NCBI GenBank assembly: GCA_041649575.1
Contig: JBAZMW010000004.1
Span: forward strand, 21,687 to 85,686
Length of the DNA: 64,000 nucleotides
Source: Patescibacteria group bacterium
Lineage (GTDB): Bacteria; Patescibacteriota; Patescibacteriia; 2-01-FULL-39-33
Direction of reading: 5' to 3'
The translations under genes and the position numbers were made by a program. Below the pieces are notes generated by a model. That model was given only the letters and a program-made list of their open reading frames with translations. It was not told the origin of the DNA and did no database searches. Shown piece by piece: positions 6,080 to 28,869 of the stretch; the first letter of the stretch is position 1, and each line of letters begins with the position of its first letter.

Positions 6080-6152
6080 GGGCCAGTAGCTCAGGGGTTA
6101 GAGCACCGCTCTTATAAAGCGGGGGTCGGTGGTTCAAATCCACCCTGGCCTA
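6080..6152 (+). tRNA. tRNA-Ile2-like with anticodon UAU (decodes AUA)
   Basis: 73-nt cloverleaf GGGCCAG/CTGGCCT; anticodon stem CCGCT/AGCGG, loop CUUAUAA; T-loop TTCAAAT; body resembles bacterial ileX but has T34 instead of C34. Confidence 0.7.
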
Positions 6153-6315
6153 CAAAAACAAATTGGAATTAAAAGTTAATTGTTTTTAAAAAAGTAAAGA
6201 CTGACATTAAAGTGGATTTGAAGGGCAGTAATGAGCCAAATCCCGCCACCGGCGGGATGAAGGCGAGACGCCCGCCAAATCCGAGCAAGCGCAGGATTTG
6301 GCGCTGCCCCGGACC

Positions 6316-6335
6316 CAAATCCACCCTGGCCTACA
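6316..6335 (+). repeat. 20-bp direct repeat of the 3' end of tRNA-Ile(UAU) (copy of 6135..6154)
   Basis: CAAATCCACCCTGGCCTACA occurs at both 6135-6154 and 6316-6335, flanking a 161-bp insert. Confidence 0.8.
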
Positions 6336-7732: not shown

Positions 7733-9331
7733 ATGAAAATTAGCGTAGAAAAAAAATTACGAAACTGGCAACTAGAGGCGCTGAAATCGCCCGAGTTTGC
7801 TTTTGTGGAAAAGTTGACAAAAAAATTCCCCGAGGCGAAAGTTTACTTGGTGGGCGGTGCCGTCAGAGACCTGATTCTAGAGCGTGATACTAAGGATTTT
7901 GATTTTGTGGTGGCCAAAGTGCCGGCCAAGGATTTGGAAAAATTCCTTAGCTCTTTGGGCAAGGTCAATCTGGTTGGCAAAAGTTTTGGAGTATTTAAGT
8001 TTGTACCTAATAACGTCATCCCGAGCGAAGCCAGGGGAGAAGTGTGGGGATCCCGCGGGATTGCCACGTCGTCCGGTTCCGTTACGCGGAACCGGTCTCC
8101 TCGCAATGACATTATTTTTGAACCCTTCGATATCGCTCTGCCGCGCACCGAGCATGCGGGCATGAGCGGCGGCTACAGGGATTTCGAAGTGCAAAGCGAC
8201 CAAGACTTGCCAATCGAGGAAGATTTGTCACGCCGCGATTTTACTATTAATGCCCTGGCCTGGGACTTGAGAGAGAAAAAAATAATTGACGAGTTTGACG
8301 GACTAAAAGATTTGGAAAATAAAACTATCAAAGCGATTGGCAAACCGGAACAGAGATTCCAGGAGGATTATACCCGCCTGCTGCGCGCTATCAGGCTCTG
8401 CTGCCAACTGGATTTTATGATCGAGGCCCACACCCTGAAAACCATTCACGACAAAGCTCAAAAAATCGGCACCATTGCCAAAGAAAGAATTAATGAAGAG
8501 CTAGTCAAAATTGTCATGTCGAACAAAGCCGAGGACGGTTTTCGATTACTGCAAAAAATCGGGCTTTTAAAAATATTAATTCCAGAACTGGAGTCGACGG
8601 TTAACATCAGCCAGAATAAACATCATATTTACGACATTTTTGAACATAGCGTACGGGCGCTGGGAGCAGGCGCTCAAAGGAATTATTCGCTTTGGGTGCG
8701 GCTGGCGGCGCTACTGCATGACATTGGCAAGCCGCAAACAAAAGAGGGCGAAGGCCCCGACTCAACTTTTTACAACCACGACATCGTTGGAGCCAAAATC
8801 GCCAAAAATATTTTAAAACGACTAGATTTTTCCAATGAGACTATTAGCAAGGTGACGCATTTAGTGCGTTATCATATGTTTTATTATGCCCTGGATACGG
8901 TGAGCGACGCCGGAGTAAGGCGACTACTAGCGCGACTGGGCAAAGAAAATATTCAAGATTTCATTGATGTCAGAATCTGCGACCGGTTGGGCATGGGCCG
9001 GCCTAAGGCCAAACCCTGGAAGCTGATTGAGCTGGAACGCCGACTCAAGGAAGTGCAGCTCGATCCCATTACTCCCAAGATGCTCAAAATCAATGGCGAT
9101 GAGCTGATGAAAATTTTGAAAATCAAGCCGGGACCGCGAGTGGGCCTGATACTTAATGCCCTGCTGGGCGAGGTTTTGGAAGATCCCGAGAAAAACGATA
9201 AAAAATATTTGACCAAAAAAATGAAAGAGTTGGATAAATCGAAAGACGAAGAATTAAAAAAACTAAATCCGGATGTAAAATTTTACGAAGAAGAAAGGAA
9301 GAGGTTGCTACATTTCAATAAAGACAACTAA
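7733..9331 (+). CDS. cca: CCA-adding tRNA nucleotidyltransferase / poly(A) polymerase family with HD domain
   Basis: GGAVRD and RRDFTINA head motifs; HD domain (LLHDIGK); 532 aa; contains an in-frame 96-bp repeat insertion. Confidence 0.8.
   Translation: MKISVEKKLRNWQLEALKSPEFAFVEKLTKKFPEAKVYLVGGAVRDLILERDTKDFDFVVAKVPAKDLEKFLSSLGKVNLVGKSFGVFKFVPNNVIPSEARGEVWGSRGIATSSGSVTRNRSPRNDIIFEPFDIALPRTEHAGMSGGYRDFEVQSDQDLPIEEDLSRRDFTINALAWDLREKKIIDEFDGLKDLENKTIKAIGKPEQRFQEDYTRLLRAIRLCCQLDFMIEAHTLKTIHDKAQKIGTIAKERINEELVKIVMSNKAEDGFRLLQKIGLLKILIPELESTVNISQNKHHIYDIFEHSVRALGAGAQRNYSLWVRLAALLHDIGKPQTKEGEGPDSTFYNHDIVGAKIAKNILKRLDFSNETISKVTHLVRYHMFYYALDTVSDAGVRRLLARLGKENIQDFIDVRICDRLGMGRPKAKPWKLIELERRLKEVQLDPITPKMLKINGDELMKILKIKPGPRVGLILNALLGEVLEDPEKNDKKYLTKKMKELDKSKDEELKKLNPDVKFYEEERKRLLHFNKDN
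8035..8130 (+). mobile_element. MITE-like palindromic element inserted in frame in cca (32 codons)
   Basis: 5' GTCATCCCGAG and 3' CTCGCAATGAC terminal inverted repeats; internal 9-bp hairpin CCGGTTCCG/CGGAACCGG; about 62% GC; the 3' half recurs at 35581-35624 and 44431-44466. Confidence 0.65.
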
Positions 9332-11146: not shown

Positions 11147-11395
11147 ATGGGGTTACCAAGCAAGAAAAGAACCAAAACTTCCAAAAGACAACGAGCCTCT
11201 CATTTCGCTCTGAAAAAGATCCGCCTGGTTAGCTGTAAAAAATGCGGCCGGCCAGTCCTGCCTCATCGGGCTTGTGAGTTCTGCGGCGTCTATAAGGGCA
11301 GAGATATTTTAAAAATCAAAACTAAGAAGAAAACCGCCAAGCAAAAAGCGCAGGACAGAAAAGAAAAAGCCAGAGAAAAAGAAGCCAAAAAATAG
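11147..11395 (+). CDS. rpmF: 50S ribosomal protein L32 with Lys-rich C-terminal extension
   Basis: SKKRTKTSKRQRASHFAL ... CKKCG ... HRACEFCG matches the L32 zinc-ribbon pattern. Confidence 0.8.
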   Translation: MGLPSKKRTKTSKRQRASHFALKKIRLVSCKKCGRPVLPHRACEFCGVYKGRDILKIKTKKKTAKQKAQDRKEKAREKEAKK

Positions 11396-11431
11396 CTGAT
11401 TTATAATTTGTAAATTATTTCTAAATCATAT

Positions 11432-11905: not shown

Positions 11906-12613
11906 TTGGCACCACTTATGAAAAATTTGTCTAGTTTAGAAAAAATTCTGGGAGTGACTTTTAAAAAACAAGAATTGCTGCTCCAGGCCGTAACACATCG
12001 TTCTTATCTGAATGAACATCCAGAATTCAAGCTTGAACATAACGAAAGATTGGAATTTCTGGGCGACGCCGTTTTGGAGCTAATAGTTACAGAATATCTT
12101 TATAACAACTACCCCAACCCAGAGGGAGAGCTGACCAACTGGCGAGCCAGCCTGGTCAACCGTTCCAGCCTGGCAGAGACCGCTCAAGAATTAGCCATTG
12201 AGTCTTTTATTTCCATGAGCAAGGGCGAGAGTAAGGATAAAAATTCCAAAGCCCGGCAATATATCGTGGCCAACGCCATTGAAGCCATTATCGGCGCCGT
12301 TTATCTTGATCAAGGAATCGGCTCGGCCAAGAAATTCATCAAAAAAAACATTCTAAGCAAGCTGGAAAGAATCATAGCCAATAAGCTATACGTCGACCCC
12401 AAAAGCGATTTCCAAGAAAAGGCCCAAGACAAATTGGGTGTCACGCCGGTGTATAAAGTTTTGGAGTCGTCCGGGCCGGATCATGCTAAAACCTTCAAAG
12501 TGGGGGTATATCTGGCCAATAAAATGCTAGCAACCGGTGTTGGTTCCAGTAAGCAAGAGGCGCAAACAGCAGCGGCCAGAAACGCCTTGGCCAAAAAAGA
12601 TTGGGAAAATTAA
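11906..12613 (+). CDS. rnc: ribonuclease III
   Basis: RNase III signature NERLEFLGDAVLEL plus a C-terminal dsRBD. Confidence 0.9.
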   Translation: MAPLMKNLSSLEKILGVTFKKQELLLQAVTHRSYLNEHPEFKLEHNERLEFLGDAVLELIVTEYLYNNYPNPEGELTNWRASLVNRSSLAETAQELAIESFISMSKGESKDKNSKARQYIVANAIEAIIGAVYLDQGIGSAKKFIKKNILSKLERIIANKLYVDPKSDFQEKAQDKLGVTPVYKVLESSGPDHAKTFKVGVYLANKMLATGVGSSKQEAQTAAARNALAKKDWEN

Positions 12614-13759: not shown

Positions 13760-13785
13760 GCTCTCGTAGTGAAATGGATATCACG
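13760..13785 (+). repeat. duplicated 5' half of tRNA-Arg (acceptor + D-arm), 25/26 identical to 13812-13837
   Basis: GCTCTCGTAGTGAAATGGATATCACG matches GCCCTCGTAGTGAAATGGATATCACG. Confidence 0.75.
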
Positions 13786-13811
13786 ACAGACTCCTGCCCG
13801 CCACTGCCTAC

Positions 13812-13883
13812 GCCCTCGTAGTGAAATGGATATCACGCTTGGCTTCGGACCAAGAATTTTGGGTTCGAATCCTGACGAGGGCG
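13812..13883 (+). tRNA. tRNA-Arg (anticodon UCG)
   Basis: Acceptor GCCCTCG/CGAGGGC, D-arm GTGA-AATGGATA-TCAC, anticodon arm CTTGG-CTTCGGA-CCAAG, T-arm TTGGG-TTCGAAT-CCTGA. Confidence 0.75.
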
Positions 13884-13916
13884 TTGGCGATGGCAGGCGG
13901 GTCGGATCTGTTATTG

Positions 13917-13940
13917 GGGGTTCGAATCCTGACGAGGGCG
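13917..13940 (+). repeat. duplicated 3' portion of tRNA-Arg (T-arm + acceptor 3' strand)
   Basis: GGGTTCGAATCCTGACGAGGGCGTT is identical to 13861-13885; the intervening spacers (13786-13811 and 13884-13916) are partly reverse-complementary. Confidence 0.7.
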
Positions 13941-14061
13941 TTACCGCGTGGGATGTTAGCTTCCGCCTCGGCTCGCTTTGTTCGCCAAGGCGAGACAGGC
14001 AGCTAGGCTACGGATCAGACTGGAAGAGTATGATAAACAATTTACATAAAACGAGTAATAT

Positions 14062-14134
14062 GGGACGTTAGCTCAGTTGGTAGAGCAGTTGCCTCTTAAG
14101 CAAACGGTCGCAGGTTCGAATCCTGCACGTCCCA
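14062..14134 (+). tRNA. tRNA-Lys (anticodon CUU)
   Basis: GGGACGT/ACGTCCC acceptor, GCTCAGTTGGTAGAGC D-arm, anticodon loop CTCTTAA, T-arm GCAGGTTCGAATCCTGC. Confidence 0.85.
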
Positions 14135-24367: not shown

Positions 24368-24485
24368 AACAGATAAAAATAGTCAATTTGATTTATCTCG
24401 CTAACCCGTTTAATTCCAGTTCTTTTCTATAACAAAAATAATCACCAAAAAGGTGATTATTTTTTGCTAAGCGGGTAACGGGAAT

Positions 24486-24633
24486 TACGCGTCGCTCCCT
24501 GCCTACCGGTAGGCAGGCGCTCCTTGCCCTGGGTTGGCAGCAGACCTGCCACCGGCAGGTCTGCTGACGTTCGACCTCATCACTTCGTGATTTGTCTCAC
24601 TGCCAACCCGTTCGATTCCCGTTAATTTCTGTT
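24486..24633 (-). repeat. 148-bp GC-rich hairpin-rich insert between tRNA-Gly and a duplicated copy of its 3' end
   Basis: 17-bp direct repeats AAGCGGGTAACGGGAAT at 24469-24485 and 24634-24650; insert holds palindromes CCTGCCTACCGGTAGGCAGG, CAGCAGACCTGCC-acc-GGCAGGTCTGCTG and GGGTTGGCAG/CTGCCAACCC. Confidence 0.65.
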
Positions 24634-24634
24634 A

Positions 24635-24837: not shown

Positions 24838-24880
24838 GTCGGGGTGACAGGACTTGAACCTGCGACCTCTTACTCCTTCA
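24838..24880 (-). pseudogene. tRNA-like 3' fragment (T-arm + acceptor 3' strand), 3' half of an outer tRNA-like gene enclosing tRNA-Pro(UGG)
   Basis: Minus strand: TGAAGGAGTAAGAGGTC-GCAGGTTCAAGTCCTGT-CACCCCG-ACA; no D or anticodon arm immediately upstream. Confidence 0.55.
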
Positions 24881-24896
24881 CCCTGTTAAATAATTG

Positions 24897-24970
24897 TCGG
24901 AGTAGTGGGATTTGAACCCACGATCTCCTGCTCCCAAAGCAGGCGCGATAGCCAGCTTCGCTATACTCCG
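24897..24970 (-). tRNA. tRNA-Pro (anticodon UGG)
   Basis: Minus strand: CGGAGTA-TA-GCGAAGCTGGCTATCGC-G-CCTGC-TTTGGGA-GCAGG-AGATC-GTGGGTTCAAATCCCAC-TACTCCG-A. Confidence 0.8.
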
Positions 24971-24979
24971 GTAATTTAA

Positions 24980-25021
24980 CAGGGCGAGAAGCAAGCGCTC
25001 TAGCCAACTGAGCTACACCCC
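24980..25021 (-). pseudogene. tRNA-like 5' half (acceptor + D-arm + 5' strand of a long helix), 5' half of the outer tRNA-like gene
   Basis: Minus strand: GGGGTGT-AG-CTCAGTTGGCTAGAGC-G-CTTGCTTCTCG-CCCTG; acceptor GGGGTGT is complementary to CACCCC at 24843-24848. Confidence 0.55.
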
Positions 25022-25088
25022 GTATTAAAACAAACAATCAACAACGATGAGCGCATTGTCAATTGCAAATCGTTAACTGTTTTGAGTA

Positions 25089-25160: not shown

Positions 25161-25235
25161 TCTCACCTCGCCGTAGCCGATAGGCGAAAGCGGGTTAAAC
25201 TTTTATCAGTCCGCCTTCGCTAAAGCTACGGCGGA

Positions 25236-25300
25236 CACTGTGCGCATACCTGGATTTGAAGTCTGGACCTTCCCGATATATCGGGACGCTCTAATTAAAT
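25236..25300 (-). pseudogene. partial tRNA-Ile-like copy (D-arm end, variant anticodon arm, T-arm, acceptor 3' strand)
   Basis: Minus strand: TTAGAGCG-TCCCGATATATCGGGA-AGGTC-CAGACTTCAAATCCAGG-TATGCGC-A; matches the 3' two-thirds of tRNA-Ile(GAU) except the anticodon arm. Confidence 0.55.
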
Positions 25301-27098: not shown

Positions 27099-28577
<1,479 letters not shown>

Positions 28578-28869
28578 AAAAAATTTGCAACTAGATTACG
28601 GCCAGTTGCCAACCGTATGAAACATTGCTTCGCTAGAAAGCGAAGATGCTTTGTTCAAAGAAAAATAACTTGGGCTTACGCTTTTTGTCACTTTTTAGTT
28701 GTCAAATTGCCTTTTTCCTCCGCTTTCAAGCGGAAAGAAAAAACAGAGGGATCCGATTTGGCGAACTCTCGTTTCAGGCGAGAATTCTGTCAGATACCAC
28801 TGTTTTCCCTCAAAATCTAAATTTTAGGAATTTTTTAAGAATGTTTTGTGCTTATTAGTCTGCCCTATT

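Follow-up and report, generated by a model that had tools for sequence, protein, structure and literature searches.

The window analysed here, a 64-kb stretch of DNA, carries at positions 13760-13940 a tRNA-Arg(UCG) gene that is interrupted between nucleotides (nt) 33 and 34 by an element of 109 nt (13793-13901), which itself holds a second tRNA-Arg(UCG). We refer to such an arrangement as a nest, i.e., a complete inner tRNA with the acceptor stem of an outer tRNA closing around it. The window is bacterial, as indicated by a full-length 16S rRNA gene recovered in an Rfam scan, and its proteins place it within the Patescibacteria (candidate phyla radiation, CPR), with the closest relatives only ~70% identical in one conserved protein. 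The nest consists of five consecutive parts:

13760-13792, forward strand: 5' piece of the outer (resident) tRNA-Arg(UCG), nt 1-33, with the acceptor 5' strand, the D-arm, the anticodon stem strand ACAGA, C32 and U33
13793-13811, forward strand: left arm of the element, CCTGCCCGCCA-CT-GCC-TAC, i.e., an 11-nt terminal inverted repeat, a 2-nt internal-loop position, the GCC helix and a short leader
13812-13883, forward strand: inner tRNA-Arg(UCG), detected by ARAGORN and Rfam, complete and presumed functional, with no encoded CCA
13884-13901, forward strand: right arm of the element, T-TGGC-GA-TGGCAGGCGGG, complementary to the left arm except for one G.T and one C.A mismatch
13902-13940, forward strand: 3' piece of the outer tRNA-Arg(UCG), nt 34-73, with the anticodon UCG, G37, A38, the stem strand TCTGT, the variable region, the T-arm and the acceptor 3' strand

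The inner tRNA was called by ARAGORN at 13811-13884 and by Rfam at 13812-13883 (RF00005, 61.4 bits) and has zero mismatched stem pairs; the T-stem of the outer gene contains two broken pairs (GGGGG/CCTGA). Both ends of the outer gene repeat the inner one: positions 13763-13785 are an exact copy of inner nt 5-27 (short-word BLAST, E=5e-8; 25/26 identical when extended to 13760), and positions 13918-13941 are an exact 24-nt copy of the inner 3' end (BLAST, E=1e-8). The initial annotation, which had described a complete tRNA-Arg between a duplicated 5' half and a duplicated 3' end, had thus placed all pieces correctly, as ARAGORN, Rfam and BLAST agree. The two spacers it had proposed are complementary, but they are not units of 26 and 33 nt, each being composed of part of the outer anticodon arm and part of an element arm. 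Nor has a helix taken the place of the shell's anticodon arm, which keeps an intact 5-bp stem and the whole of its 7-nt loop, in two parts separated at 33/34—shells with a truly replaced anticodon arm do exist elsewhere (L114 and L060). The outer gene, moreover, cannot be described simply as a duplicate: nt 1-26, nt 51-72 and the 7-nt loop are common to both genes, but all five anticodon-stem pairs differ. Judged from the sequence, this mosaic suggests gene-conversion tracts.

Excising exactly 13793-13901 yields a canonical cloverleaf, the joined outer pieces being called tRNA-Arg(tcg) by ARAGORN, and the restored 7-nt anticodon loop (CT+TCGGA) is identical to the inner loop. Because ARAGORN calls a tRNA for nearly any excision or stitched version of the outer pieces, the junction cannot be placed from the window sequence alone; the split was assigned to 33/34, and the anticodon to UCG, because the termini of the family to which the element belongs fix its boundaries. 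An outer tRNA-Arg(CCU) split at 37/38, which ARAGORN also accepts, was rejected since these termini place the junction at 33/34. The predicted fold of the whole 182-nt unit is one cloverleaf inside another (-86 kcal/mol, z=-5.5), and none of 200 shuffled sequences folds as well.

The family emerged from two scans. In the first, one genome per species was searched for two T-loops 35-60 nt apart, a spacing too short for two tandem tRNAs; at least 120 loci matched, and among the matches listed about ten are true nests, eight of them from Patescibacteria. Two of these, L053 (Kerfeldbacteria, Thr-GGU) and L080 (Saccharibacteria, Thr-CGU), have flanks almost as in the window, of the form CCTGCCCGCCA...GCC-[tRNA]-GGC...TGGCAGRCGGG, so that family members occur in three Patescibacteria lineages. 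Once CCTGCCCGCC...GGCAGRCGGG is cut out exactly, the window, L053 and L080 all yield a canonical tRNA; in L080 the split lies in the D-stem, which excision restores. In the second scan, metagenomes were searched with the 11-nt termini, which again matched at least 120 loci, mostly from groundwater and sediment, and the matches listed comprise 124 unique elements; the left arm in the window is an exact match to the family terminus common to L053, L080 and these >120 metagenome loci. A viral collection scanned with the same 11-nt termini gave zero matches.

A complete tRNA is carried by 38 of the 124 elements, and all 38 sit inside a tRNA gene of the same kind. Exact excision restores a same-strand outer tRNA in 28 of these 38 nests, and the anticodon called for the outer gene equals that of the inner one in 26 of the 28; in one of the two exceptions, the same CCT loop is still present with a 1-nt insertion. 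The remaining ten nests have shells of the same type that ARAGORN missed owing to deletions, extra small hairpins (TCCGCC...GGCGGA) or further nesting. The loops that are hit are the D, anticodon and T loops, with insertion points at nt 20-24, 33-39 and 54-55. Moreover, anticodons with C34 are over-represented among nested tRNAs (25/38 vs 22/59, p=0.005). Isoacceptors with C34 are often dispensable and are those that a cell can best spare, which is why this excess fits insertions that truly disrupt the gene.

The other 86 elements carry no tRNA and none of them lies in a tRNA gene (0/86). They are mostly intergenic and tightly sized (100-103 nt), with unique, more AT-rich spacers, and their cargo is unrelated to the flanks; a general rule by which the cargo is a copy of the target is therefore false for elements without a tRNA. 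These elements are not decayed tRNAs either, given that a T-loop motif is found in 0/86 and that their size class and GC content differ, and a role as introns of protein genes was rejected since most are intergenic. In the conserved stalk, the 11-bp inverted repeat, with its single G.T and C.A mismatches, leads through a 2x2 internal loop to the GCC/GGC helix, and pairing of the arms extends past the conserved sequence with several pair types, i.e., with covariation. Elements within other elements (L138, L160 and L175) and bare hairpin forms (L116 and L128) were also observed, and, relative to the tRNA, the arms point one way in 20 cases and the other way in 8. As a separate observation, many intergenic members of this CCTGCC family (L133, L139, L142, L155, L162, L169 and L179) lie within locus-specific runs of short direct repeats, e.g., CTAAAGTG, GGATTTCGA and AATGACAAAA around tRNA-less elements; these repeats are found on both sides, yet they form no exact target-site duplication.

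The comparison with orthologous loci that the initial annotation had called for was made with two syntenic relatives found via protein homologues (L003 and L004); a YmdB search of species-representative genomes gave no close relative. Both keep the gene order PilT-like / tRNA-Arg / tRNA-Lys / HU / YmdB / RNase Y, and in both the tRNA-Arg(UCG) adjoining tRNA-Lys is plain and has no shell, so the nest arose in the lineage of the window. The initial annotation had also named a collapsed tandem duplication in the assembly as what would undo its proposal, and such an error, or a chance partial tandem duplication without any element, was weighed as an alternative. The contig was indeed assembled from short metagenome reads, one run's Logan assembly is interrupted within tRNA-Lys, adjoining the nest, and independent assembly support is limited (L001, 100% identical to the window, may be its very source, and L002 ends at position 14100). 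However, the arms are an exact member of a family present on >120 independent contigs; nests recur on dozens of contigs from unrelated projects, in assemblies by different groups and assemblers; and inner and outer genes differ at many positions, including all five anticodon-stem pairs in the window, because of which repeat collapse or expansion cannot make the nest. We consider an artefact or a chance duplication very unlikely.

The outer genes are in decay. Mismatched stem pairs average 1.11 in outer genes, against 0.11 in inner tRNAs (p=0.0016) and 0.27 in ordinary tRNAs of the same contigs (p=0.007), and two or more broken stem pairs are found in 10 of 28 outer genes and in 0 of 28 inner ones. 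Ten further shells bear deletions or extra hairpin insertions around an intact inner tRNA. The outer copies thus do not keep their stems as well as other tRNAs do, as would be expected of functional tRNAs. Because the outer genes decay, the functional tRNA-like shell envisaged in the initial annotation finds no support. A related idea is that the shell is kept for a non-decoding RNA role, e.g., to distract anticodon nucleases as a decoy or to serve as a tRNA-like handle for RNase P, RNase Z or the CCA-adding enzyme. In favour of it, many shells still pair in their acceptor stem and T-arm, and the precursor folds as a nested double cloverleaf; against it, shells gather mismatches, deletions and extra insertions, the relatives process the same tRNA without a shell, and no shell-specific feature is conserved. 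Retention of the shell for such a role appears very improbable.

In our assessment, the nest was probably formed by DNA-level insertion of a hairpin-ended element, similar to REPINs and miniature inverted-repeat transposable elements (MITEs), that disabled the resident tRNA gene and supplied its replacement. The second proposal of the initial annotation—a self-complementing insertion of a hairpin-flanked, tRNA-bearing element into the anticodon arm of the same tRNA—is hence supported, namely by the exact excision, by the shell-less relatives and by at least 38 nests elsewhere. The element resembles a REPIN- or MITE-like repeat in that it is a short, non-coding unit bounded by terminal inverted repeats, with many copies whose presence varies between relatives. 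It has a constant 3' end next to varying exon sequences, and its two junctions directly face each other at the foot of the helix, as do the tips of an inverted repeat. The occurrence of both arm orientations also points to insertion into DNA, because a DNA enzyme would be indifferent to orientation whereas a sequence-specific RNA enzyme would discriminate. No target-site duplication was found; flank identity is at chance for k=1-8, and excision leaves no extra bases.

The same junctions can be read as those of a new bacterial tRNA intron, in which cleavage of the RNA at the foot of the stalk, followed by ligation of the outer halves, would give two working tRNA-Arg(UCG) per precursor. This proposal fits the 28 exact excisions that give a canonical tRNA, the 16 outer genes whose stems are flawless despite an identity of 65-78% to the inner tRNA, and the conserved mismatches and covarying pairs of the stalk. 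The insertion points in the D, anticodon and T loops fit as well, since non-canonical archaeal tRNA introns sit at these same places. In addition, the Gln(UUG) nest of L178 and the Gln(CUG) nest of L152 have near-identical outer genes, each of which matches the anticodon of its own inner tRNA. However, broken stem pairs are ten times more frequent in outer than in inner genes, and 10 of the 38 outers are wrecked while the inner tRNA is intact. A bulge-helix-bulge motif (two 3-nt bulges and a 4-bp helix) fits in 0 of 28 nests, the central helix alone being present in 1 of 28, and the opposed junctions are those of inverted-repeat tips. Moreover, the two arm orientations amount to different RNA sequences, and the same termini bound 86 elements outside any tRNA gene, mostly intergenic. 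Finally, no pathway for protein-dependent tRNA splicing is known in bacteria (PMC13011429). We judge such an intron improbable.

Other classes of insert were considered as well. No group I intron or other ribozyme family was detected in a scan of the whole window at Rfam gathering thresholds; a group I core (P3-P9) usually takes up more than 200 nt, whereas the insert has 109 nt, 72 of them tRNA; even at permissive thresholds, Rfam returned no family for the arms or for the other tRNA-linked inserts described below. Insertion by an integrase is not indicated, as the element contains no open reading frame (ORF) and its flanks (nt 1-33 and 34-73) are not repeats of each other. One candidate for an autonomous, transposase-bearing element (L128) was rejected, as it is a bare hairpin of 37 nt.

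On the insertion hypothesis, the tRNA-Arg(UCG) gene would occupy the place where REPIN and MITE repeats have their spacer. Since the sole clear terminator comes after tRNA-Lys, a single precursor probably carries both the nest and tRNA-Lys. In that precursor, the arms could pair into a stalk and so let the inner tRNA fold independently of the near-identical shell, and RNase P and 3'-end nucleases would then free the inner tRNA. Since the inner tRNA encodes no CCA, we propose that the CCA-adding enzyme completes it. The same processing would sever the outer transcript in the anticodon loop, leaving the outer gene dead and free to drift. The resident gene would thereby be replaced by the cargo, and the element would be hard to lose. 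Two genes for RNA-processing enzymes are found upstream of the nest:

7733-9331: gene for the CCA-adding enzyme
11906-12613: gene for RNase III

Several observations weigh against insertion of a REPIN- or MITE-like element. Only one exact copy of the element is present in the 64-kb window. In ~1.8 Mb of related sequence, neither a transposase nor an autonomous element with such ends turned up and no pair of termini encloses an ORF, RAYT and HUH genes not having been searched for. The 16 outer genes with flawless stems fit recent insertion into a diverged resident gene, and continued function fits them as well. Furthermore, the inner gene matches the outer one at 100% identity in L218 and L159, as would not be expected of a foreign cassette. 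A free arm-tRNA-arm cassette outside a matching tRNA was seen in 0 of 38 cases, though 86 tRNA-less elements were seen. Survival of self-complementing insertions cannot explain the missing free cassettes, so that the match between cargo and target needs a mechanism, and the mosaic in the window is not accounted for by simple insertion and decay.

Some of these observations would be expected of a local origin, in which a bare hairpin lands in the resident gene and a replication or repair error then places an intact copy of the gene at the hairpin tip, or in which the cargo is overwritten from the shell by gene conversion; the inner gene would be alive and the outer one dead. The identity of inner and outer genes in L218 and L159 fits this scenario, as does that in L206 and L237 (92%), and for 6 of 18 inner tRNAs the closest match is the outer gene around them. 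The absence of free cassettes, the identical ends in the window, which resemble conversion tracts, the bare hairpins in tRNA shells (L116 in the D-region; TCCGCC...GGCGGA in L134, L173 and L183) and the several unrelated arm families that yield the same architecture all agree with it. On the other hand, for 12 of 18 inner tRNAs a tRNA of another contig, in several cases an inner one, is a closer match than their own shell—the inner tRNAs of L207 and L216, for instance, are 0.90 identical to each other and 0.77-0.82 identical to their own outers. Elements with a non-tRNA cargo were caught in a tRNA gene in 0 of 86 cases, no simple series of template switches was found that gives the order of the pieces, and no junction microhomology was seen by eye. 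Nor is a retro-copy of a mature tRNA supported as the origin of the inner gene, as there is no excess of encoded CCA (5/28 inner vs 8/28 outer). All in all, we regard a local origin as rather unlikely.

The cargo may be either a travelling cassette, possibly spread by homologous recombination via the shell halves, or a resident copy kept similar by gene conversion; there are signs of both. Several features would follow if such recombination between shell halves spread nests as a whole, although this is conjecture. A nest also creates direct repeats, between the 5' piece and the inner 5' part and between the inner 3' part and the 3' piece. These repeats can expand by slippage, as in L206 and the three-level L218, and could equally delete back to a single gene. 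A more far-reaching possibility, which we hold to be less likely than not, is that nests are new selfish gene-replacement cassettes of CPR bacteria, whose insertion or fixation is tied to their cargo and occurs only in a chromosomal tRNA gene with the same anticodon, killing the resident copy and making the cassette indispensable. Cargo-guided targeting, or homing by recombination via the shell halves, would be candidate mechanisms for such selectivity. A still more daring form of this idea would add an unknown bacterial splicing activity that takes the stalk out of the RNA.

The initial annotation had pointed to two related arrangements in the tRNA cluster of the window. The first proved to be a true nest with different arms, and the second corresponds only loosely, consisting of partial copies:

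24839-25022, reverse strand: locus 2 nest, a Pro-type shell (C1-G72 acceptor, four intact stems) enclosing tRNA-Pro(UGG) at 24970-24896

The arms of locus 2 form a perfect 11-nt inverted repeat, CCCTGTTAAAT (24984-24974) and ATTTAACAGGG (24891-24881), and are unrelated to those of the Arg nest. No excision restores an NGG (Pro) anticodon in this shell, i.e., the loop junction is not restorable. Because other arm families give the same architecture elsewhere, nests arise repeatedly and are not peculiar to a single repeat family. The same two sequences, CCCTGTTAAAT and ATTTAACAGGG, form a 48-nt hairpin on two unrelated contigs (L192, 641-689, and L234, 8705-8753), where it lies in a conserved, apparently structured non-coding region common to both and without an Rfam match. 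Locus 3 (25735-25236, reverse strand) is a complex set of partial copies around tRNA-Ile(GAU) and not a clean nest: it contains a copy of the leader and 5' end (18 nt, 94%), an 88% copy of the 3' end ~290 nt downstream, and two identical 29-nt copies of an internal segment, the anticodon-like hairpin of which has a loop of just 6 nt (TCCCG-ATATAT-CGGGA), with GC-rich hairpins between the partial copies.

Other inserts linked to tRNA genes were noted. A second, unrelated family of structured inserts of ~125-165 nt is present in the window at 6154-6334 (forward strand) and 24470-24634 (reverse strand) and in L003 at 11229-11400 (reverse strand). Its members have a GGCAG/CTGCC stem, a GAGACGCC hairpin and a CAAAT.../...ATTTG hairpin, and no Rfam match. 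The two inserts of the window come after tRNA-Ile(UAU) and tRNA-Gly, and each opens with the T-arm in inverted copy and closes with 18-21 nt that repeat the tRNA 3' end exactly; that of L003 precedes tRNA-Lys and comes with a 26-nt copy of the leader and 5' end. The spacer between the Arg nest and tRNA-Lys (13942-14060, forward strand) begins with GGGATGTTAGCT (13950-13961), an 11/12 copy of the tRNA-Lys 5' end, and also has a GGCGAGACAGGCAGC motif, in which it resembles the second-family inserts; its counterpart is 3 nt long in L004 and a structured insert in L003. Hairpins of the type (G)TCCGCC...GGCGGA(C), with 88 matches in the loci examined (both strands counted), occur in damaged shells or beside tRNA genes, e.g., at 25209-25236 in the window and in L134, L149, L173, L183 and L218, and may constitute another small insertion family. 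Outside the CPR, the T-loop-pair scan picked up a different pattern in Actinomycetota (L043, L124 and L126), in which tandem repeats of the 3' half and downstream flank come after a complete tRNA, without a closing 5' piece; it may reflect stacked integration sites.

The 16S rRNA gene lies at 27101-28583 (reverse strand) and is followed downstream, to ~24400, by tRNA-Ile(GAU), Phe, Pro, Pro and Gly. Neither tRNA-Ala nor 23S rRNA was found anywhere in the 64-kb window, and in the absence of the latter the rRNA genes appear to be unlinked. A tRNA-Ile(UAU) gene at 6080-6153 (forward strand) coexists in the window with tRNA-Ile(GAU); the anticodon UAU is uncommon in bacterial tRNA-Ile.

If correct, the interpretation of nests as insertions has several implications. 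A small hairpin repeat would carry a whole tRNA gene and end up only inside a gene that its cargo can replace, and we know of no mobile element with such a cargo-matched target. This would be a simple route to genetic addiction, since a host losing the insert would lose the tRNA, and a possible mechanism of tRNA gene replacement in small genomes whose isoacceptors are presumably mostly single-copy. Because the 11-bp ends and their fixed mismatches are conserved across distant CPR lineages, an enzyme that recognises them is indicated, and the ends are a possible tool. In practical terms, standard tRNA finders report the inner gene only, so that shells, extra halves and multi-level nests go unannotated, and these structures can break assemblies. 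Full-text literature searches returned no description of tRNA-in-tRNA nests in bacteria, and the arrangement appears to be undescribed.

Among known systems, REPINs and MITEs are similar in many respects: units of ~100 nt, non-coding, with paired inverted arms and a variable spacer, mostly intergenic, with copies within copies, bare hairpins, presence varying between relatives and no target-site duplication. Such a duplication is typical of most MITEs and absent in REPIN, IS200/IS605 and IS110 types, and REPINs are non-autonomous hairpin repeats mobilised by RAYT (HUH) transposases. The present family differs in that its spacer is a complete tRNA in 38 of 124 elements, found only inside a tRNA of the same kind, and in that the window holds a single copy; unlike for RAYT-mobilised REPINs, no transposase turned up among the elements, with the proviso that RAYT and HUH genes were not searched for. 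Integrative elements that target tRNA genes (phages and genomic islands) follow the same self-complementing logic, cutting the target and supplying what a working tRNA requires. They span kilobases, however, encode an integrase, restore only the 3' (or 5') part of the gene and are flanked by identical direct repeats (attL/attR), whereas the Arg element has 109 nt, no protein gene and an entire tRNA, and is flanked by two different halves of its target.

The group I tRNA introns of Patescibacteria (PMC13011429; bioRxiv 10.1101/2025.07.03.662931) are self-splicing ribozymes that usually reside in the only copy of a tRNA; the Arg element has no group I core and no Rfam match for such a ribozyme, and is mostly tRNA. 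Neither of these two sources mentions tRNA nests. The intervening sequences of bacterial 23S rRNA, which are excised by RNase III and not religated, are likewise inserts bounded by a stalk that leave the host RNA in pieces, but cleavage of the nest by RNase III is no more than conjecture, even though the window encodes this enzyme; a fragmented rRNA works, however, whereas a tRNA cut in the anticodon loop cannot decode. Finally, the disrupted tRNAs of archaea (with bulge-helix-bulge introns, split or permuted) are likewise interrupted in the D, anticodon and T loops, their halves are held together by GC-rich complementary sequences, and without the interruption the tRNA is canonical. In contrast to them, the nests have a bacterial host, lack the bulge-helix-bulge motif (0/28), have junctions at inverted-repeat tips and outer genes that decay, and are interrupted by the very same tRNA. 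The nests could thus represent a bacterial counterpart of archaeal disrupted tRNAs and make it testable whether split and intron-bearing tRNAs stem from insertions into tRNA loops.

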